Of a DNA stretch of 28,245 nucleotides, positions 4,330 to 22,081 are shown one piece after another. The translations under genes and the position numbers were made by a program. How positions within the stretch are numbered: position 1 is the first letter of the stretch; every line of letters starts with the position of its first letter. A model generated the notes under the pieces. It ran no database searches. It was not told where the DNA came from and was given only the letters and a program-made list of their open reading frames with translations. Source of the stretch: a virus. The stretch lies in UHGV virus genome UHGV-0133447; one strand, given 5' to 3'.

Positions 4330-4955
4330 CCCACCAGTACCGATTTTGCTTTCAGGAATCGGGCGCGTCGGTCATCAATGCCGTTCTGCCCGCCGTTGAT
4401 AATCTGGGTCACGCGCACTAAATCTCCGTGGTATTTCAAACATCCGTTTGAGGTGTAAAACCAGGCTGCGCTGCGGGCCGCATTAATATATTTCTCCAAC
4501 AACTCAGGGTTGCTGACTAAATCCAGTTTCAGTGCATTACCGCACTTCATATAATTTTCGAGGAAGGTGATCCCGATAATTCCACGCCCGCGGTATTTCC
4601 AGCCATCGCCCGCAGCCTTATTGCCAAAACGATTGTTGTAGACGAGATTAGCGATCGCTCGTTGACGTTCGATCGGTAAAACCTTTTCGTAAGTTTTACG
4701 CCCCAGGGTGTTCGCCTGGTCCTGCGTGATGCGCTTTGCCTTCACAAAACCAGCCAGGCCGGCAACGCTATAGTTAAAACTTTCGACCATCTGGGTAAAT
4801 GACGTGCTTTCGTGTCCACACTGCGCTATGAACATCGCCTGATCGAGTGGAGCTGTAATGCCGAATTCTTTCATCGCAGCATCAATATGCGGAAACCAGC
4901 GCGCAGCTAACCCGGCGCTGATACCAGCCGCCCTTTGAAATTGTGATTGGTTCAT
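4326..4955 (-). CDS. Endolysin, glycoside hydrolase family 19 (chitinase-like)
   Basis: 209 aa with FIAQCGHESTSF and YRGRGIIGITFLENY, which are GH19 catalytic-region motifs. Sits after the holin genes. Confidence 0.92.
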   Translation of the reverse strand: MNQSQFQRAAGISAGLAARWFPHIDAAMKEFGITAPLDQAMFIAQCGHESTSFTQMVESFNYSVAGLAGFVKAKRITQDQANTLGRKTYEKVLPIERQRAIANLVYNNRFGNKAAGDGWKYRGRGIIGITFLENYMKCGNALKLDLVSNPELLEKYINAARSAAWFYTSNGCLKYHGDLVRVTQIINGGQNGIDDRRARFLKAKSVLVG

Positions 4956-5233
4956 CAGTGCCTCAGTGCATCAACCAGTCGCGCCACATTCCCCCTGAAC
5001 CAGAGAACCGCGCCGCAGATAAGAATGTTAGCCAGCACCACCAGCCAGTGGGATGACTCGTACAGGCCAAACAGGAAACGGAAAGGGATGCTGGCATAAA
5101 CCAGCACCATGAGATAAGCCAGAACGGATATGCCCGGACGGTGTCTCGCACTACCTCGTTGGTAGAACATCAATGCCAGCACAATGACGGCGCAAATGAC
5201 TGCATTGGCCAGCGCTGAAGGATCATTTACCAC
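4955..5233 (-). CDS. Holin/antiholin-like small membrane protein
   Basis: 92 aa with about 3 hydrophobic helices and a charged C-terminus. Immediately upstream of the endolysin. Confidence 0.6.
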   Translation of the reverse strand: MVNDPSALANAVICAVIVLALMFYQRGSARHRPGISVLAYLMVLVYASIPFRFLFGLYESSHWLVVLANILICGAVLWFRGNVARLVDALRH

Positions 5234-5612
5234 TTGAACCTCCTCCCCGGAACCGGGTCAGCATATTGAACAAGCTATTTAGATCCTGGCTGTTGAGAAA
5301 CGTCAGAACTTTGATGATAAGCGCTGATATTAATACGGCTCCCAACGCATCAAGCGGACGGTCGCTGTAGCCAGTCCAGCTTGAAAGCTTGGAACCCACC
5401 AGACCGGCGCCCAGAACACCAACAATGAATGACGTCATAAAGTATGCCACCAGCTTACCGCGCGATATGTTAGCTGCCGTGGCCACGTAAAAAACCGCCC
5501 CGGCGAACGCACCAAATACCACGCCGTAATCTATTCCGGTAGCCAGACCGAACATGCTAGCCCCCATCAGGCCGCCGGCCGCAACTGAAGTACCAGAGAC
5601 AGGATCGGACAT
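5223..5612 (-). CDS. Holin-like membrane protein
   Basis: 129 aa, multi-TM and Gly/Ala-rich. GAGGGGG RBS. First gene of the lysis cassette. Confidence 0.6.
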   Translation of the reverse strand: MSDPVSGTSVAAGGLMGASMFGLATGIDYGVVFGAFAGAVFYVATAANISRGKLVAYFMTSFIVGVLGAGLVGSKLSSWTGYSDRPLDALGAVLISALIIKVLTFLNSQDLNSLFNMLTRFRGGGSSGK

Positions 5613-5854: not shown

Positions 5855-6265
5855 ATGGAAATTATTTCAGTAATCGGAGTGATACTGACACTGCTAGGGC
5901 TCTTTATTCCGTCACTAATCAGTAACCATTCGTCACGTAAGGCAGAGTTCAGGAAGCATTCCGCACCACTGCTGGGAAAGTTGCTAAGCGAAATTGAGGC
6001 TATTGAAGGAGGCTCTTATCCATTCAGGCTTATCAGCGATGCTGATTTCAACCAGTTGCTACCTTACGCCCCGAGGCGCAGGAAAAACGCTCTCCTTGAT
6101 GCTTACACCAGTTATCTCGACGCTCATACGATGGCCACCACGAAGCACTGGCACGATGAACATCCATCCGATGGAATGCTATTTTTCCCGACGGGTTTCT
6201 CAGTCACTAATTCAGATGAGGTACTGAAGAAAATGCAACCTCTGAAAAAAGAACTCAGCAGATAG
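5855..6265 (+). CDS. Hypothetical N-terminally membrane-anchored protein (136 aa), opposite-strand moron
   Basis: ORF with an N-terminal TM (IISVIGVILTLLGLFIPSLI). Lies on the strand opposite to the late operon and is bracketed by the 14-bp direct repeat. Confidence 0.6.
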   Translation: MEIISVIGVILTLLGLFIPSLISNHSSRKAEFRKHSAPLLGKLLSEIEAIEGGSYPFRLISDADFNQLLPYAPRRRKNALLDAYTSYLDAHTMATTKHWHDEHPSDGMLFFPTGFSVTNSDEVLKKMQPLKKELSR

Positions 6266-6330: not shown

Positions 6331-6358
6331 AAATAAAAAAGCCATGCAAATGCATGGC
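6331..6358 (-). terminator. Rho-independent terminator (minus strand)
   Basis: GCCATGCA-AA-TGCATGGC (6341-6358). The minus-strand reading is followed by TTTTTTATTT. Confidence 0.65.
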
Positions 6359-6462
6359 CTTGTGGTTTGAATCCGTTATTTACAAAATGTATTCGAGACA
6401 GTATCTTTCGACTTCCGGACAAAAAAACATATACCGGGACAAAATCTAAATGTAACTGCCTT

Positions 6463-6662: not shown

Positions 6663-6744
6663 GGATAATTTAGGATGTAGTCATAGGCGGCGTCAATAAC
6701 TGACACTCTGTCAAAGGCATCATTACGATGCCTTTTGCACAGTG

Positions 6745-6900
6745 CTAATCACTGGATCTAATAAGGGGCCAGAGCAAAGCGATTACCCCGGCTACCAGCA
6801 CGCCATCAGCCAGGATTGACATCATTTTGCTGGTGAAGTCGATAGCAACCACCAGAAACAAAAGCACCCCGGCTGCGGCCCAGCGAAGTTTACCGATCAC
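6745..6900 (-). CDS. Small two-TM membrane ORF (51 aa), translationally coupled to the TerB-domain gene
   Basis: Below the ORF-track cutoff. The GTG start overlaps the TerB stop (GTGA). Translation is (M)IGKLRWAAAGVLLFLVVAIDFTSKMMSILADGVLVAGVIALLWPLIRSSD. Hairpin at 6713-6735 downstream. Confidence 0.5.
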   Translation of the reverse strand: MIGKLRWAAAGVLLFLVVAIDFTSKMMSILADGVLVAGVIALLWPLIRSSD

Positions 6901-7322
6901 AGGTACTGGTCCAGAGGAAGTTGCAGAGCCTGGGCAATTTTCTTCAGCTGTTTCTCTTCTTCTTCCCCGATGCCGTCGTTATCAGCTACATCAAGACACA
7001 GGCAAAGAACATCGACAGCGTCATCCGTCCCGGCAACGTCAGCCAGTTCGCGCAACGCCTGAGCGTTGGCTGAACGTGGTGATGCTTCATAGCGAGCGCG
7101 AATATTCGAACTCATCTGGGCAATTTCACCAGCAAATGGCGCGAATGCCGGGAGGGCCGAAATAGTCTTCTCCAGCACTGCAATCTCTTTTGCATCGCAG
7201 GTACCATCGGCGTATGCAATCGAGTACGCTCCCCAGACCGTGGCTTCTACGGCATCGCGGTTTTCCATTTTTTTTACTTCAACAACGGCTTTACGGGCTT
7301 TCTTTTTAAAAATACCGAACAT
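6897..7322 (-). CDS. TerB-domain (tellurite-resistance TerB-like) protein
   Basis: Internal start MFGIFKKKARK... at 7322, preferred over 7403 because the upstream part is a stable hairpin. It has the TerB-like pattern AYADGTCDAKEIAVLEKTI ... LDVADNDGIGEEEEKQLKKIAQAL. Confidence 0.75.
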   Translation of the reverse strand: MFGIFKKKARKAVVEVKKMENRDAVEATVWGAYSIAYADGTCDAKEIAVLEKTISALPAFAPFAGEIAQMSSNIRARYEASPRSANAQALRELADVAGTDDAVDVLCLCLDVADNDGIGEEEEKQLKKIAQALQLPLDQYL

Positions 7323-7341
7323 AATTACGTCTCTCTTTAGT

Positions 7342-7403
7342 GGTGAGCCAACGCTCAGGGATGGTAACCACAAGGCGACGTAATACCGTCCCTCTTGGCT
7401 CAC
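7342..7403 (-). promoter_or_regulatory. Long imperfect stem-loop in the 5' leader of the TerB gene
   Basis: GGTGAGCCAA (7342-7351) pairs with TTGGCTCACC (7394-7403). An inner AGGGATGG/CCGTCCCT pairing ends about 20 nt upstream of the TerB start. Confidence 0.35.
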
Positions 7404-7453
7404 CCTGAAAAGTTGTGGTTTTGATTTTTCCGCCGAGCGAGGCGGCTATGAGC

Positions 7454-7954
7454 TTAAATAGATGAAAAATCACCATGGTACTGCCTGGAAGCAGCTACAT
7501 ACGCCCTGTGCGCTTCTTCTTTAGTGTGGAAGCGACCAAGTCGAATTTTTTTCTTTGCAATACTTATTTGCGCAATCCATTTTTTTCTATTGCGGGGGGA
7601 ATCGTTGAAATAGACCCCTTTAAGTCCAGCTGCGTTATTGCTGTGTATCCGTCGATTGCGAGTGTTCTGGTTTTGTGTGCAGAGCCTGAGATTTGTAATA
7701 CGGTTATTCAACTTGTCGCCATCAATATGATCAACAACAAGGGTTGACGGAATTTCACCGTATTTCAAGACCCAAATTATTCGGTGCACACGTATATTCT
7801 TTCCATTGAAGAATACCCTTAAATACCCAGTATCAGTCTTGACGCCAAGAGTGTCGCCAGGACTTTTACTCCCAAAAGGTGACTTGCAATAAAGGATGCC
7901 CGTAGTTTCATCGTATGAAAAAAAGTTCCTAACCGTTTCAAGAGATAGATTCAT
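7454..7954 (-). CDS. HNH homing-type endonuclease with AP2-like DNA-binding domain
   Basis: 166 aa. VDHIDGDKLNNRITNLRLCTQNQN is an HNH_3 motif. The C-terminal GVYF...KWIAQISIAKKKIRLGRFHTKEEAHRAY is AP2-like. AGGAG RBS. Confidence 0.85.
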   Translation of the reverse strand: MNLSLETVRNFFSYDETTGILYCKSPFGSKSPGDTLGVKTDTGYLRVFFNGKNIRVHRIIWVLKYGEIPSTLVVDHIDGDKLNNRITNLRLCTQNQNTRNRRIHSNNAAGLKGVYFNDSPRNRKKWIAQISIAKKKIRLGRFHTKEEAHRAYVAASRQYHGDFSSI

Positions 7955-8033: not shown

Positions 8034-8505
8034 TGATGGATCCGCTTACTGATACGGAGCGACCAACCTAAGTTGTCGCAGATTCAAATTGTGGCCCTGC
8101 CTTTAAGTCACTTTGCGCGCAGCTGGGACATGTAGTTTTCGCATCGTGATCGGGATTCGCTTCAGACGCTGGCCCCGCAGCCATTTAAGTGCCGGTTACG
8201 TTTATCCGGCGGCTTTCGCCCGGTTAAGCCCTAAGGTAAGGGATTTGGTTGTGACACCAGGCCGTTACGCCTGCTTACTTCCTGCCGCTCTGTTTTGGTA
8301 TTGGCCGCCAGTAACTGCGACTCAGCCGATTTACAGGTCTTTGCGTCGGCCGGCGCTGCAGCCCACTTGAGCACATCACAACGGAAAGAGCGCTTAGTGC
8401 ATTTAAGCCAAACCCCATGTAGGAAGCACTCTTACCTGTTGTGCGCTCCGTTTCGTGGAGCAGACGCCGCCGGAATCGCACCGGCAGAATCATCACATTG
8501 GTATA
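8034..8505 (-). ncRNA. Untranslated structured RNA downstream of tRNA-Thr, containing a paralog of the early-left RNA module
   Basis: No credible ORF; the track ORFs overlap each other and the tRNA. Contains a T-arm/acceptor-like fragment (8456-8485), a roughly 20-bp imperfect stem (8425-8445 with 8374-8394), the sense 21-nt motif AGCGCTCTTTCCGTTGTGATG and a closed module at 8248-8382. Confidence 0.45.
8374..8394 (-). repeat. 21-nt boxA-like motif, late-operon copy (AGCGCTCTTTCCGTTGTGATG on the minus strand)
   Basis: 18 of 21 positions identical to the copy at 21904-21924 (plus strand). Both copies are in the sense orientation of their own operon. Confidence 0.6.
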
Positions 8506-8581
8506 TGGTGCTGGTTGACGGAATCGAACCGCCGACATCCTGCTTACAAGGCAGGCGCTCTACCAGCTGAGCTAAACCAGC
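8506..8581 (-). tRNA. tRNA-Thr (anticodon UGU), CCA encoded
   Basis: The reverse complement folds as a canonical cloverleaf: GCTGGTT/AACCAGC acceptor, GCTC-AGCTGGTA-GAGC D arm, CCTGC-CTTGTAA-GCAGG anticodon arm, GGCGG-TTCGATT-CCGTC T arm, and ACCA 3' end. Confidence 0.93.
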
Positions 8582-9621
8582 AAATTACGCATTTCACTGA
8601 CCGTCTGTTCAAATCTCTCGGTTTCCAGTTCGACACCTAGTCCCCTTCGCCCGAGAAGAGCAGCCTGCTTGAGCGTTGAGCCTGATCCAAAAAAGAAATC
8701 AGCTACAACATCACCCGGGCGGCTACTCGCTGTGATTATCTGCTCCAGCATATCCGCAGGCTTTTCACATGGGTGTTTACCTGGATAAAACTGAACAGGC
8801 TTATGAGTCCAGACGTCGGTATATGGCACCGTGACCGATACGCTGAATGGTCGCCGTAAACGGTAATATTCCTGCTGGAGTTCAGAATATTTTCGGCTTA
8901 ACGATTGCCAGGTGCCGACAAGCTGGTGGTGAGGTTTTCCCAGTTCGTTGCGTGAGTGCTTATCCATGGCGATTGTTTGAAACAAAGCCTGCAACTTTAA
9001 ATAATCGGCTTCGTTCGGTAGCTGCCACTGACTAAGGCCAAACCAGTGGGAAACCATATTTTTCTTACCTGTGGCTTCTGCAATCTGAGCCGACGTCACG
9101 CCAAGAGATTCCCGTGCATCACGGAAGTAAGAAATTAAAGGCGTCATGACGTGTTGCTTTAACTCATTACACTTTGCGGCATATCCATCGTCTTTGGGCC
9201 TGTATGGCCCCTGATAATGGTCGGCAAAAATGATACGCTCAGTGGCCGGGAAATAAGCGCGTAAGCTCTCCTTATTGCAGCCGTTCCATCGCCCTGATGG
9301 CTTAGCCCAGATGATATGGTTGAGCAGGTTAAACCGCTCTCTCACCAACAGCTCAATATCCGCTGCCAGGCGGTGCCCACAGAACAGATACATGCTGCCG
9401 GCAGGTTTTAACACTCGCCAGAACTGTGCCAGACAGCTATCCAGCCAACGTAAATAGTCTTCGTCCCCCTTCCATTGGTTATCCCAGCCGTTTGGCTTCA
9501 CCTTAAAATAAGGCGGATCGGTAACAATAAGATCAATGGAGTTATCGGGTAGCGATGGGAGGTATTGCAGGCAATCAGCATTGATTAACTCAATACTGGA
9601 TATTTTTACAGTATTTTTCAT
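8572..9621 (-). CDS. DNA methyltransferase, beta-class N6A/N4C (DPPY motif)
   Basis: 349 aa. Motif IV IVTDPPYF is near the N-terminus and motif I DFFFGSGST near the C-terminus, which is the beta-class order. The target base cannot be told from sequence by eye. Confidence 0.9.
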   Translation of the reverse strand: MKNTVKISSIELINADCLQYLPSLPDNSIDLIVTDPPYFKVKPNGWDNQWKGDEDYLRWLDSCLAQFWRVLKPAGSMYLFCGHRLAADIELLVRERFNLLNHIIWAKPSGRWNGCNKESLRAYFPATERIIFADHYQGPYRPKDDGYAAKCNELKQHVMTPLISYFRDARESLGVTSAQIAEATGKKNMVSHWFGLSQWQLPNEADYLKLQALFQTIAMDKHSRNELGKPHHQLVGTWQSLSRKYSELQQEYYRLRRPFSVSVTVPYTDVWTHKPVQFYPGKHPCEKPADMLEQIITASSRPGDVVADFFFGSGSTLKQAALLGRRGLGVELETERFEQTVSEMRNLLV

Positions 9622-10172: not shown

Positions 10173-11003
10173 TTATGCGATATTTATCAAATCAGGCACC
10201 TTTGTCACACGTTTAAGCTGTGAGTCGGTATAACTCTCTTCCTCAAAGCATCTTGTAACCAGACTTTCATAGAAAGGTTTCCAGCTATATCGCCAGGTAC
10301 GTTCTGGCAGACCAGGCAGCTCAGAGAGCATACCCCTGTATGCATTCGAAGACTTAGGACGACTATAACCGCGGCCTTCACAACGTTTACACACTTTGTA
10401 GACAGGCACTCCCTGCAGCTCTGACTCTTTACGGTCCAGGGTTTTTCCCGTACCGCCACACTGGCATCGCTTGCTGATTTTCCCGGTGCCGCCACATTTG
10501 AAGCAAAGAACATGGTCAACCTCTTCCACCTGACGTTTTACTTCAAAATCCGAAGGTGACTGCCTGAGGTCTTTTGCCCATTGCGGTAATCTCATTGTGT
10601 AGTGGCTTTTTTCCACCATTGAGGTTTTTTTTATGAAGCCTGAACCAGAACACTTCCTGCAATCTACGCTGTCAGCTGCAGACGAGGCATAGTCGTTATA
10701 AGCGAACCGAGCTATTATCAGCATACACAGCGGGAACTTCTTCCCTGCTGCTTTTCTTATCGATCGAGGCGCTTTTGATTTTGCATATTCAGCCAACCAA
10801 CTGACGGATGCCTTTCTGTCGTGTTCGCTGATTCCAGCTTTACCCAAAAACATTGACAGGCCTATTCCTGCCTCTGCCTGTGTCATCCCCAGAGCCGCCA
10901 TTACATCTGTCACAGTAAGTTGCTCGCTGGCGGTTGCAAGACCGCTATCGGAAATATGCATTCCTTTGGGCGCAAAAAATTTGGGAATTGATTCAATATT
11001 CAT
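10173..11003 (-). CDS. Antitermination protein Q-like (Qin/QuuQ-type, with DnaJ-like CxxCxGxG zinc-finger repeats)
   Basis: MNIESIPKFFAPKG... N-terminus. Contains CRKCSGSG, CFKCGGTG, CQCGGTG and CKRCEGRG repeats. The ATG at 11003 has GGAG 8 nt upstream, whereas the track start at 11021 is a GTG. Sits upstream of the PR'/tR'-like elements. Confidence 0.7.
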   Translation of the reverse strand: MNIESIPKFFAPKGMHISDSGLATASEQLTVTDVMAALGMTQAEAGIGLSMFLGKAGISEHDRKASVSWLAEYAKSKAPRSIRKAAGKKFPLCMLIIARFAYNDYASSAADSVDCRKCSGSGFIKKTSMVEKSHYTMRLPQWAKDLRQSPSDFEVKRQVEEVDHVLCFKCGGTGKISKRCQCGGTGKTLDRKESELQGVPVYKVCKRCEGRGYSRPKSSNAYRGMLSELPGLPERTWRYSWKPFYESLVTRCFEEESYTDSQLKRVTKVPDLINIA

Positions 11004-11021
11004 GCTCAGTACTCCATACAC

Positions 11022-21903: not shown

Positions 21904-21924
21904 AGTGCTCTTACCGTTGTGGTG
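21904..21924 (+). repeat. 21-nt boxA-like motif, copy 1 (AGTGCTCTTACCGTTGTGGTG)
   Basis: Contains TGCTCTTA (compare lambda nut boxA CGCTCTTA and rrn boxA TGCTCTTTAACAA), followed by GT-rich GTTGTGGTG, which is also the 5' acceptor-like strand of module 1. Confidence 0.6.
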
Positions 21925-22042
21925 TAGCTCAAATGGATAGAGCGCCCCTTATGTGGGGAGTTGAGCACTAACCAATGTTCGCAACACAGGTTATCTCATG
22001 CGGCCGGCCGGACGTTATGCGGGTTCAAATCCCGTCACCACA
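21918..22042 (+). ncRNA. tRNA-like module 1 (canonical acceptor, D arm and T arm; non-canonical anticodon region with a 60-nt insertion)
   Basis: TGTGGTG (21918-24) pairs with CACCACA (22036-42). The D arm is TA-GCTC-AAATGGATA-GAGC and the T arm GCGGG-TTCAAAT-CCCGT (22019-35). The anticodon position has only CCCC-TTATGT-GGGG (a 6-nt loop) plus extra hairpins. No 3' CCA. Confidence 0.5.
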
Positions 22043-22081
22043 GCGCACAACGATGAGGGCATTGACGAGCAAGGCACAGAG

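Follow-up and report, generated by a model that had tools for sequence, protein, structure and literature searches.

A structured leader RNA in front of the TerB-family gene pair tciA-tciB in the late region of a lambdoid prophage

The virus genome UHGV-0133447, a lambdoid prophage of Klebsiella type (the window, meaning the whole stretch of 28,245 nucleotides that was analyzed), carries a TerB-family gene, a very small second gene that overlaps its end, and a long leader in front of both, all on the minus strand between the antiterminator gene Q and the holin genes. The locus raises the question of what this gene pair is, and what the leader in front of it does. An earlier note, made from the sequence alone, had described a stand-alone TerB-domain gene with a coupled 51-codon partner behind a stem-loop of roughly 60 nucleotides, and had placed it among the lysogenic-conversion or exclusion genes of such phages. 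Judged by its protein matches, the pair is the already known tciA/tciB of the phage P1 type (PHROG 632 and 1470). The leader is a conserved structured RNA in which compensatory base changes exceed those of the controls.

Structure and conservation of the leader RNA

The leader comprises about 125 nucleotides that directly precede the tciA start codon, and it is conserved in 75 of the 80 nearest loci. It has seven helices and is pseudoknotted, with two long-range pairings among its helices. The stem-loop that the earlier note had placed at 7342-7403 is present (arms 7404-7395 and 7351-7342, ending 19 nucleotides before the ATG), although it is not the sole structure and forms the core of the larger leader at 7446-7323. 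On the gene strand, leaders of this type (class I) run from helix P1 (5 bp, with the loop (A/U)CGCUC) through strand A and an invariant CUUUCAG to a long hairpin. The hairpin consists of a foot helix, in which CUUU pairs with the AAAG/AAAGG of the ribosome-binding site, helix P2 (GGGUGAGCCA/UGGCUCACCC), a bulge on the 3′ side with the sequence UGAGCG, and helix P3; a small hairpin, P4, is usually present, and strand A′ is located in the apical loop. Two pairings cross this hairpin, one between A and A′ and one between the loop of helix P1 and the bulge, the latter referred to here as the kiss.

Structure prediction with RNAalifold on a MAFFT alignment was uninformative because of register shifts, and it was replaced by an alignment to a covariance model (CM) and explicit counting of pairs. 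The model, R1, was built from the nested helices alone, and three long-range helices lie outside the model that made the alignment. Pairs were counted on 89 sequences, which are related to each other and whose alignment is fitted to the nested helices; 95.9% of the cells were paired, compared to 35-48% when the partners were slid. Changes on both sides were found in 20 of the 44 pairs. In total, 99 cells were changed on both sides, compared to 10.2 +/- 2.9 in shuffled alignments, and none of 500 shuffles reached this value. Each of the seven helices contains at least one compensatory pair. Since G-U pairs are frequent on the gene strand, the folded molecule is the sense RNA.

The compensatory changes are seen directly in the sequence variants. 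Helix P1 occurs as GCGCC/GGCGC, GCGUC/GACGC, CCGCC/GGCGG, ACAUC/GAUGU and CUGUC/GACAG, all of them complementary. The A:A′ pairing occurs as CCACAGAG/CUCUGUGG, CCAUGGAG/CUCCAUGG, CCGCAGA/UCUGCGG, CCGUAGAG/CUCUACGG and AACCACAA/UUGUGGUU, while the class I kiss occurs as CGCUC/GAGCG, CGCCC/GGGCG and GGCUC/GAGCC. P3 and the ends of P2 covary as well. Separate covariation was found in a second class of leaders, described below, and in the leaders of the Erwinia phages, JLK-2012 and pPE4.

Searches with these tools yielded 77 distinct class I relatives. The CM matched upstream of the JLK-2012 TciA, a protein 39% identical (136 bits). Further matches were obtained in the 'Actinobacillus' phage pPE4, with 140 bits, and, with 49-53 bits (E ~1e-12), in three Erwinia jumbo phages. 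In 717 kb of unrelated DNA it gave two matches, both of which were true leaders, and no false match. A pattern scan of the collected loci gave 199 matches. The exceptions among these were read, and nearly all of them precede tciA or a divergent TerB allele; two precede other secreted proteins, and a few are chance matches. A loose pattern scan of genome contigs returned 120 stretches, nearly all of them random matches in GC-rich genomes, and when 100 of these loci were searched again with the CM, 2 were true leaders.

The leader appears, from these sequence comparisons, to represent an undescribed family of structured RNA. A search of Rfam 15 with positions 7250-7500 of the window gave no match at E <= 10. 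The corresponding region of the Escherichia coli UMNK88 prophage (locus L002, 7870-8200) gave sub-threshold Rfam matches, all ending at or before 8015; these sit on the stretch from the late promoter P_R′ to its terminator tR′ and on the first bases after it, and not on the body of the leader. Text searches of the literature on the core sequences of the leader, and on TerB together with an RNA motif, gave no match.

Minimum free energy (MFE) folds were computed for 11 leaders. In 9 of the 11, the core of the Shine-Dalgarno (SD) sequence pairs with the CUUU strand of the foot helix: it does so in the window, in two Erwinia leaders, in pPE4 and in three leaders of the second class, and partly so in the type of locus L044. 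In the fold of JLK-2012, its partner is a U run further downstream, and one leader could not be scored. In the window, the anti-SD strand is opposite AAAG of the ribosome-binding site; in the Erwinia, pPE4 and class II leaders, CCUU/UCUU pairs with AAGG.

Three other readings of parts of the leader were rejected. The long hairpin is not an intrinsic terminator: it has no U tract, being followed by ACUAAAGAGAG, and it is absent from the list of the terminator scan. The leader is not the PasA or PasC small RNA (sRNA), nor a short P_R′ transcript, since those lie elsewhere and end in terminators. A perfect 14-nucleotide complementarity between leader positions 7359-7346 (the bulge and the 3′ arm of P2) and the tciA coding sequence at 7071-7058 is confined to the closest clade of the window, and it is lineage-specific or due to chance because the synonymous sites of relatives vary freely without keeping the match.

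The second class of leaders (class II) was found through weaker CM matches at second sites in the same prophages, and a pattern scan for it gave more than 100 distinct variants at more than 100 IMG/VR loci. The layout is that of class I: helix P1 as GCGC/GCGC, strand A, CUUUCAG, helix P2 as GUGAGCCUG/CAGGCUCAC, the bulge, helix P3, CUAAAAGGAAA, and AUG. The kiss varies as CGCAC/GUGCG, CGUAC/GUACG and CGCAU/AUGCG, the A:A′ pairing as GAAAGU/ACUUUC, GAGAG/CUCUC and CGAUAA/UUAUCG, and P3 as CG, GC, UG and UA. Class II leaders are present in phage phi80 before rha and before an ORF (open reading frame) similar to gp59 of phage N15 (locus L448, 897-1045 and 2491-2622), in HK639 after the terminator of the major tail gene (locus L447, 2493-2619), and in HK620, HK106, the mEp phages and others, such as locus L050 (5735-5866). 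The downstream protein is N15 gp59-like in 60 of 97 cases; among the remainder are glycosyltransferase-like and small proteins as well as an HNH enzyme. A hairpin resembling an intrinsic terminator, with a T run, is located immediately 5′ of the leader in 90% of the class I contexts and 77% of the class II contexts, and class II leaders usually start a few nucleotides from the U tract of that terminator. JLK-2012 and the Erwinia phages have a tRNA gene where the terminator would be. Because class II leaders precede other genes, the leader is not specific to tciA but is a module for cargo genes located behind a terminator or a tRNA.

Truncated leaders were also observed. In the PPompW prophages and the prophages converting to Stx2a, a match is found for the first ~48 nucleotides of the class I leader alone (P1 and A), which abut an annotated ISEc20 of the IS110 family; this suggests that ISEc20 inserts into the leader.

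The tciA-tciB gene pair

The first gene had been called as a TerB gene, and this family assignment holds, although the start of the gene had to be moved. The ORF from GTG 7403 to 6897 was rejected because its extension is not conserved and contains in-frame stops in relatives; in 45 of the 77 distinct leaders, an in-frame stop is located 14 codons before the ATG at 7322. All relatives begin with MFG or MLG at this ATG, the window protein with MFGIFKKK. TciA thus has 141 residues. It matches Pfam TerB (PF05099) with 30 bits against a cut-off of 24.4, over residues 15-57 only, and PHROG 632 ('tellurite resistance') with 216 bits. A PDB search with the single sequence gave nothing beyond weak EF-hand noise, and the family profile was needed: a profile of 72 TciA-family members matched the solved TerB of Klebsiella pneumoniae, 2JXU, at E = 5.6e-27 over its full length (positions 8-143), which bears out the TerB call. 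An AF2 model of TciA is all-helical, with seven helices and a pLDDT of 93.7, and its best PDB match in Foldseek is 2H5N, a member of the TerB clan (probability 1.00, TM score 0.52, E = 0.02). Two acidic DG-x5-E motifs are conserved, with the positions G40/E46 and G117/E122 kept, and the N-terminus is basic and amphipathic. The subfamily is compact, with 183 representative clusters at E <= 1e-3. Searches of PADLOC gave no match for TciA or TciB, and NCBIfam likewise gave nothing useful.

The second gene encodes TciB, a protein of 51 residues that matches Pfam DUF3927 (PF13064) with 51.7 bits (cut-off 25) and PHROG 1470 ('TciB-like') with 79.8 bits. The two hydrophobic helices that had been claimed for it were recovered as peaks at residues ~5-21 and ~26-46, consistent with two transmembrane (TM) segments. 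Because both ends of TciB carry positive charges, they are probably cytoplasmic. A WP(L/V)xK motif at the C-terminus is conserved across genera. The description of this ORF as one that had been missed did not stand, as RefSeq already annotates it in E. coli prophages as 'DUF3927 family protein' next to a 'tellurite resistance TerB family protein'. With this annotation and the matches to the phage P1 proteins, the pair is not new and the ORF was not overlooked.

The genes are closely coupled. The GTGA overlap of the tciA stop and the tciB start at GTG 6900 recurs in 136 of 139 related units with intact frames, in agreement with the start first proposed, and tciB is located immediately 3′ of tciA in all 80 of the nearest IMG/VR loci. 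Both genes are conserved and under strong purifying selection: the median ratio of nonsynonymous to synonymous substitution rates (dN/dS) is 0.014 for tciA, where dS is ~1.5 and saturated, and 0.09 for tciB. The pair occurs in lambdoid, P1-like, N4-like, Erwinia jumbo and Pseudomonas phages. A survey of the kind that the earlier note had called for showed the small two-TM ORF next to TerB homologs down to ~35-40% identity, as a conserved neighbor in phages of six genera (Escherichia, Klebsiella, Salmonella, Erwinia, Pantoea and Pseudomonas). The pairs at ~35-40% identity are those of the lambdoid JLK-2012, the Erwinia jumbo phages, Pseudomonas phiK7B1, Pantoea LIET2 and N4-like Salmonella phages (FSL SP-076); their small ORFs share a ...DG...WP(L/V)xK pattern, and several are at the DUF3927 threshold. 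These sequence comparisons support the small ORF as a real, translationally coupled partner of the TerB gene, and the lack of conservation beside TerB homologs that the earlier note had named as refuting its claim was not observed.

The pair of phage P1 was reportedly annotated as tciA-tciB(-tciC) by Lobocka and colleagues in 2004. The window TciA is 84% identical to that of phage P1 over all 141 residues, and the window TciB, with ~45% identity over 31 residues, is a DUF3927 homolog that falls in the same length class and shares the two-TM layout. Both have the genes in one order, with adjacent or overlapping stop and start, and both have tRNA genes and a DNA methyltransferase gene near the pair. 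Two differences stand against these likenesses. The phage P1 tciC, which encodes a 35-residue single-TM peptide, has no equivalent after the window tciB, where no tciC-like ORF was found (a 34-residue ORF of phage LMessi is unrelated). The phage P1 genes belong to the C1-controlled ban operon and have no structured leader, whereas the window genes are in a Q-dependent late region behind the leader. A literature search found no experimental test of tciAB function. A CRISPR interference study of phage P1 that bears on these genes (PMC10695390) is considered below.

Several variations on the pair were observed. In the closest relatives of the window (loci L011, L014 and L090), which are otherwise nearly identical, tciB is frameshifted after codon 25 and the tciA product is 100% identical to that of the window. 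One TerB-DUF3927 fusion is present in the database (P0215); it comes from a single assembly, is weak evidence, and could be an assembly error. TciB without TerB is found in phage 434. The Vibrio N4-like phage BUCT194 (locus L328, 1-1881) encodes TerB, TerC/Alx and TerB in a row, an arrangement that links phage TerB genes to a TerC-type membrane transporter. In the Erwinia phage Asesino (L449, 1375-1820), a gene for a periplasmic solute-binding protein similar to TAXI/NMT1 follows terB and the small ORF, and at locus L160 (4879 onward) a similar gene is located directly behind a class I leader with no tciAB; together these are hints of a larger module or of a tciAB deletion. In addition, tRNA genes adjoin tciAB in very different phages. 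They were found in the window (Thr, ~1.2 kb upstream), in phage P1 (L003; Asn and Thr upstream and Ile downstream of the pair), in JLK-2012 (L325; Asn, Thr and Gly), in the Erwinia jumbo phages (L326, L449 and L450; Trp and Cys upstream, with more downstream in ChrisDB), and in phiK7B1 (L327).

Neighborhood of the pair in the window

The positions of the leader, the genes and the surrounding features are given in Table 1. The closest relatives at the DNA level are prophages and phages of Klebsiella. The placement of the pair in the zone between Q and the lysis genes, as first proposed, follows from the positions of Q (10173-11021) and the holins (5223-5612 and 4955-5233).

Table 1. Features of the leader, the tciA-tciB pair and their surroundings, in the order of the late strand
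Feature	Position	Strand	Remarks
Q-like antiterminator gene	10173-11021	-	PHROG 127, 317 bits
Putative late promoter	TTGCAA 10156-10151, TAATTT 10134-10129	-	Inferred by analogy with the E. coli UMNK88 layout
Putative terminator tR′	10089-10065	-	Read from sequence by analogy with UMNK88
Small ORF			Between tR′ and the DNA methyltransferase gene
DNA methyltransferase gene	8572-9621		
tRNA-Thr	8506-8581		
Intrinsic terminator	8034-8015	-	Terminator scan
Truncated leader copy (P1 and A-like segment)	8013-7913	-	Runs into the HNH start; CM R1 33.1 bits, E ~5e-6
HNH-AP2 homing-endonuclease gene	7454-7954	-	Pfam HNH_3 (74 bits) and AP2; PHROG 99; directly 5′ of the leader
Class I structured leader RNA	7323-7446	-	From P1 to the last base before the ATG; CM R1 100.8 bits, E ~1e-24
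Helix P1 hairpin CCGCC/GGCGG	7430-7445	-	Loop UCGCUC (7440-7435) pairs with the internal bulge (kiss)
Strand A AACCACAA	7413-7420	-	5′ partner of the apical-loop pseudoknot
Anti-SD CUUUU	7408-7412	-	Foot of the long hairpin; 96.8% of cells paired
Long hairpin	7342-7404	-	P2 arms 7404-7395 / 7351-7342; z = -2.9 vs shuffles for the region
Helix P3	~7392-7386/7364-7358	-	Inside the long hairpin
Strand A′	7373-7366	-	Apical loop of the long hairpin
Kiss bulge GAGCG	7356-7352	-	Inside the long hairpin
Shine-Dalgarno region of tciA AAAGAGAG	7331-7338	-	Placed by its distance to ATG 7322; predicted unpaired probability 0.22 on average
tciA, 141-residue cytoplasmic TerB-fold protein	6897-7322	-	ATG 7322, stop 6897-6899
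tciB, 51-residue two-TM DUF3927 protein	6745-6900	-	Start GTG 6900, ends at 6745
Hairpin directly after the tciB stop	6704-6744	-	Arms 18 nt, 83% complementary, no clear U tract; inverted-repeat search
STnc100-family sRNA	6691-6494	-	Rfam 100.7 bits; just downstream of tciB; ends in terminator 6525-6504
Orphan 136-residue ORF	5855-6265	+	Opposite strand to the late genes; adjoins terminators; hydrophobic N-terminus
Holins	5223-5612 and 4955-5233		Followed by a GH19 endolysin

The HNH-AP2 gene takes up a place that, in most relatives, is held by a terminator directly before the leader. In the window it is sandwiched between the truncated leader copy, which follows the terminator at 8034-8015 and in the alignment contains P1 and A only, and the complete leader. 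The leader variant beside the insertion is the most divergent class I type (~100 vs ~180 bits). This arrangement has the appearance of homing into the conserved DNA of the leader, accompanied by co-conversion. Further upstream, the ~470 nucleotides from tRNA-Thr to the terminator (8035-8505, minus strand) contain no convincing ORF and no Rfam match.

Downstream of the pair, the hairpin 3′ of tciB is also found after tciB in UMNK88, and more terminators follow the STnc100 sRNA. In a 2026 preprint, STnc100 was grouped with the prophage sRNA PasD, and TerB was among the conserved neighbors of PasA and PasC. Searches of Pfam, PHROG, PADLOC and NCBIfam gave no match for the orphan ORF, nor did tblastn against 50,697 phage records. 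As an accessory gene expressed in the lysogen (a moron), this ORF is a better candidate than tciAB. Near the prophage end, a 126-nucleotide match to the Rfam tRNA model (21918-22043, plus strand, 40 bits) received no ARAGORN call, and may represent either a tRNA interrupted by an insertion or the remnant of an attachment site.

An 11-nucleotide inverted repeat had been proposed to bracket the ~1-kb block, and this reading was not sustained. The sequence GCCTTGTGGTT is found at 6357-6367, and its reverse complement at 7366-7376, which is 5 nucleotides away from the coordinates first given (7361-7371). The window contains 19 inverted pairs of 11-mers at distances of 200-1100 nucleotides (7.0 +/- 3.4 in Markov-1 simulations), so a single such pair is unremarkable. 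The distal arm is within the terminator hairpin at 6361-6338, in a block that E. coli UMNK88 and phage LMessi lack between tciB and the holin gene; their homology to the window stops before it. The conserved and covarying partner of the proximal arm is instead strand A of the leader, AACCACAA at 7420-7413, ~45 nucleotides upstream. The repeat was therefore rejected as a cassette boundary.

Expression and function of the pair and its leader

In UMNK88, the order of elements is the Q stop, the promoter TTGACT-17-TATGCT, the terminator tR′, the leader, tciA, tciB and the holins, and in relatives the leader begins right after the late terminator tR′ that follows Q. A consensus scan of the minus strand from 7323 to 7460, which is weak evidence, found no sigma-70-like promoter. 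In phage P1, tciAB is part of the C1-repressed ban operon, and homologous pairs are present in virulent N4-like and jumbo phages, which have no lysogeny. Taken as sequence contexts, these point to a role in lytic growth and not in lysogenic conversion.

The reading favored here, to which a probability of roughly 60% is given as a whole, is that tciAB is expressed late behind a leader that masks the SD sequence, and that TciB tethers TciA at the membrane. According to this reading, the pair would be expressed during lytic growth on antiterminated read-through transcripts. The folded leader would occlude the ribosome-binding site, so that translation of tciA would be low or gated, and the two tertiary pairings would lock the occluded state until it is released by some signal, such as a ligand, temperature, RNase processing or the kinetics of transcription. 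A translational gate on late read-through transcripts is favored because the MFE folds occlude the SD sequence and the tertiary pairings would lock it there; the role of the leader, as modeled, is probably translational control. TciB would tether TciA to the inner face of the membrane, and the two together would act as the TerB membrane arm does in the Ter systems. In the infected cell, the complex would stabilize or monitor the state of the envelope or of cations, with premature lysis, colicins or superinfection as examples of what it might counter. The anchoring of TciA at the inner membrane is suggested by the coupling and co-occurrence of the genes, the positive-inside ends of TciB, the basic amphipathic N-terminus of TciA, and the membrane association of TerB that is reported in literature cited in 10.1101/2022.05.11.491447.

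Other leaders sequester the SD sequence in a similar way. In riboswitches of the preQ1-III type and in the fourU and ROSE thermometers, a U-rich strand pairs with the SD sequence at the base of a hairpin; in pseudoknotted leaders of this kind, a strand from outside pairs with the hairpin loop, and the element acts in cis directly upstream of the start codon. In contrast to these, the phage leader has no similarity in Rfam, contains the additional kiss between loop and bulge, and precedes functionally unrelated genes.

Several observations weigh against this explanation. The predicted unpaired probability of the SD sequence is 0.2-0.5 and not near zero. The foot helix that contains the anti-SD strand is mostly invariant or wobble, with one double change, and because it varies so little it receives little support from covariation; P3 is irregular between subtypes, with 84% of its cells paired. 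The tciAB genes of phage P1 and of the N4-like phages have no structured leader, and similar leaders precede unrelated genes, so the leader is uninformative on the function of TciAB. A contact between TciA and TciB would follow from their coupling and co-occurrence, and from the single fusion that may be an assembly error. By CRISPR interference, tciA, tciB and tciC of phage P1 are non-essential for plaque formation.

The view of the earlier note, in which tciAB is a moron expressed from the prophage that gives phage exclusion, defense, or tellurite or colicin resistance like Ter, Shango or Bunzi, draws on the accessory zone in which the pair is located, on the terminators on both sides of the block, and on the occurrence of TerB domains in those systems. 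The likeness to the Ter-operon TerB (2JXU) extends to the fold, the length and the paired DG...E acidic motifs, and to a membrane partner encoded by a neighboring gene, with the TerB-TerC-TerB order of the Vibrio phage as a further parallel; Shango and Bunzi share the TerB domain, and both are thought to act at or watch the membrane. However, the genes TerA, TerC, TerD, TerE and TerZ of the terZABCDE operon are absent from the neighborhood, which instead contains an HNH endonuclease, an sRNA, an orphan ORF and holins, and the membrane partner is a 51-residue DUF3927 hairpin in place of the multi-pass TerC. Shango depends on two partners, a helicase and an ATPase, and the TerB protein of Bunzi is fused to a TM segment; neither arrangement is found in the window. 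The tciAB pair is phage-borne, in a lytic-phase operon, and without a match to any PADLOC model. With the partner genes absent, the locus is neither Shango nor a Ter operon. In addition, the stretch from the HNH gene to tciA has no promoter-like site, and in relatives the Q-dependent transcript has the leader directly next to tR′. The phage P1 genes are in a repressor-controlled lytic operon, and strictly virulent phages, both N4-like and jumbo, have homologous pairs. The moron function is therefore not supported and is regarded as quite unlikely.

The remaining alternatives concern the leader. An active RNA device, either a riboswitch that responds to an ion or a small molecule, or a ribozyme that by self-cleavage would cut the late polycistronic RNA just behind the terminator or tRNA, would fit the compact multi-helix fold with its two covarying tertiary pairings and its invariant joins (CUUUCRG and a GUGAGCC/GGCUCAC core), which resemble those of aptamers and small ribozymes. 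It would also fit the location of the leader, which immediately follows either a terminator (77-90% of contexts) or a tRNA. The leader is moreover conserved from lambdoid prophages to Erwinia jumbo phages despite their different transcription machinery, which indicates an RNA-autonomous function. Such a device is nevertheless judged unlikely, as no ligand, no cleavage site and no likeness to a riboswitch or ribozyme in Rfam was found, and cargo as unrelated in function as tciA, N15 gp59-like genes, rha, a glycosyltransferase and a solute-binding protein would be unusual for a metabolite riboswitch. Sites at which RNase III or RNase E processes and stabilizes an mRNA are classically known from the R sites of phage T7 and the N leader of lambda. 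If the leader were mainly a site of this kind, separating the cargo cistrons from the upstream RNA and activating or protecting them, then its long imperfect helix (foot, P2 and P3, ~20 bp with internal loops), its position between a terminator or tRNA and the next cistron of a long late transcript, and the closeness of P1 to the would-be 5′ end would be accounted for, but not the covarying long-range pairings, neither of which RNase III needs; this explanation is likewise improbable. Conservation mainly at the DNA level, with the leader as a shared linker for recombination of cargo cassettes and a homing target and the RNA structure incidental, is considered very unlikely, given the compensatory changes in seven helices, including pairings 50-90 nucleotides apart, the gene-strand G-U pairs that would be A-C mismatches on the other strand, and the inclusion of the ribosome-binding site in the element. 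The facts that it would explain are that leaders of one family are found beside many different cargo genes and in varying places of the genomes, that an HNH homing-endonuclease gene interrupts or abuts the leader in the window, and that ISEc20 abuts truncated leaders in the PPompW and Stx2a prophages. A precedent exists in the PeSL cassettes of T4-type phages, intergenic stem-loop modules that flank variable accessory genes and may mediate their shuffling (Arbiol et al. 2010, PMC2839356). Both are conserved intergenic regulatory modules with stem-loops beside variable accessory genes. They differ in that PeSL consists of an early promoter and a simple stem-loop, while the leader has no recognizable promoter, follows a terminator, and folds into a complex, covarying structure of which the ribosome-binding site is a part. 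A role in recombination could exist alongside the RNA role.

Beyond the window, the class I and class II leaders may together form a new family of cis-acting phage RNAs of ~110-135 nucleotides that gate the translation of cargo genes after terminators or tRNAs, a proposal held tentatively and at slightly less than even odds. The kiss and the pseudoknot from strand A to the apical loop would lock a hairpin whose foot masks the ribosome-binding site, and the element would possibly be a riboswitch, a ribozyme or a sensor of antitermination; this part is put forward with the same reserve. The cargo genes behind such leaders include tciA, N15 gp59-like genes, rha, glycosyltransferases and others, and the leaders are found in the lambdoid phages phi80, HK639 and HK620, the mEp phages, many prophages and also Erwinia jumbo phages.

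The gene pair taken alone is a re-discovery, and the remaining interest is in the leader. As for the proteins, an almost invariant TciA is coupled to a tiny membrane protein across temperate, plasmid-like, virulent and jumbo phages of several genera, and the lytic-growth contexts change which assays make sense for tciAB. The leader is present in the classic model phages phi80, HK620 and HK639, in which genetics is easy. If the leader does control the translation of cargo genes on antiterminated transcripts, this would explain how inserted and possibly toxic genes are kept silent until late in lambdoid phages, and the leader would add a new RNA regulatory class and a portable part for the control of expression to phage biology.

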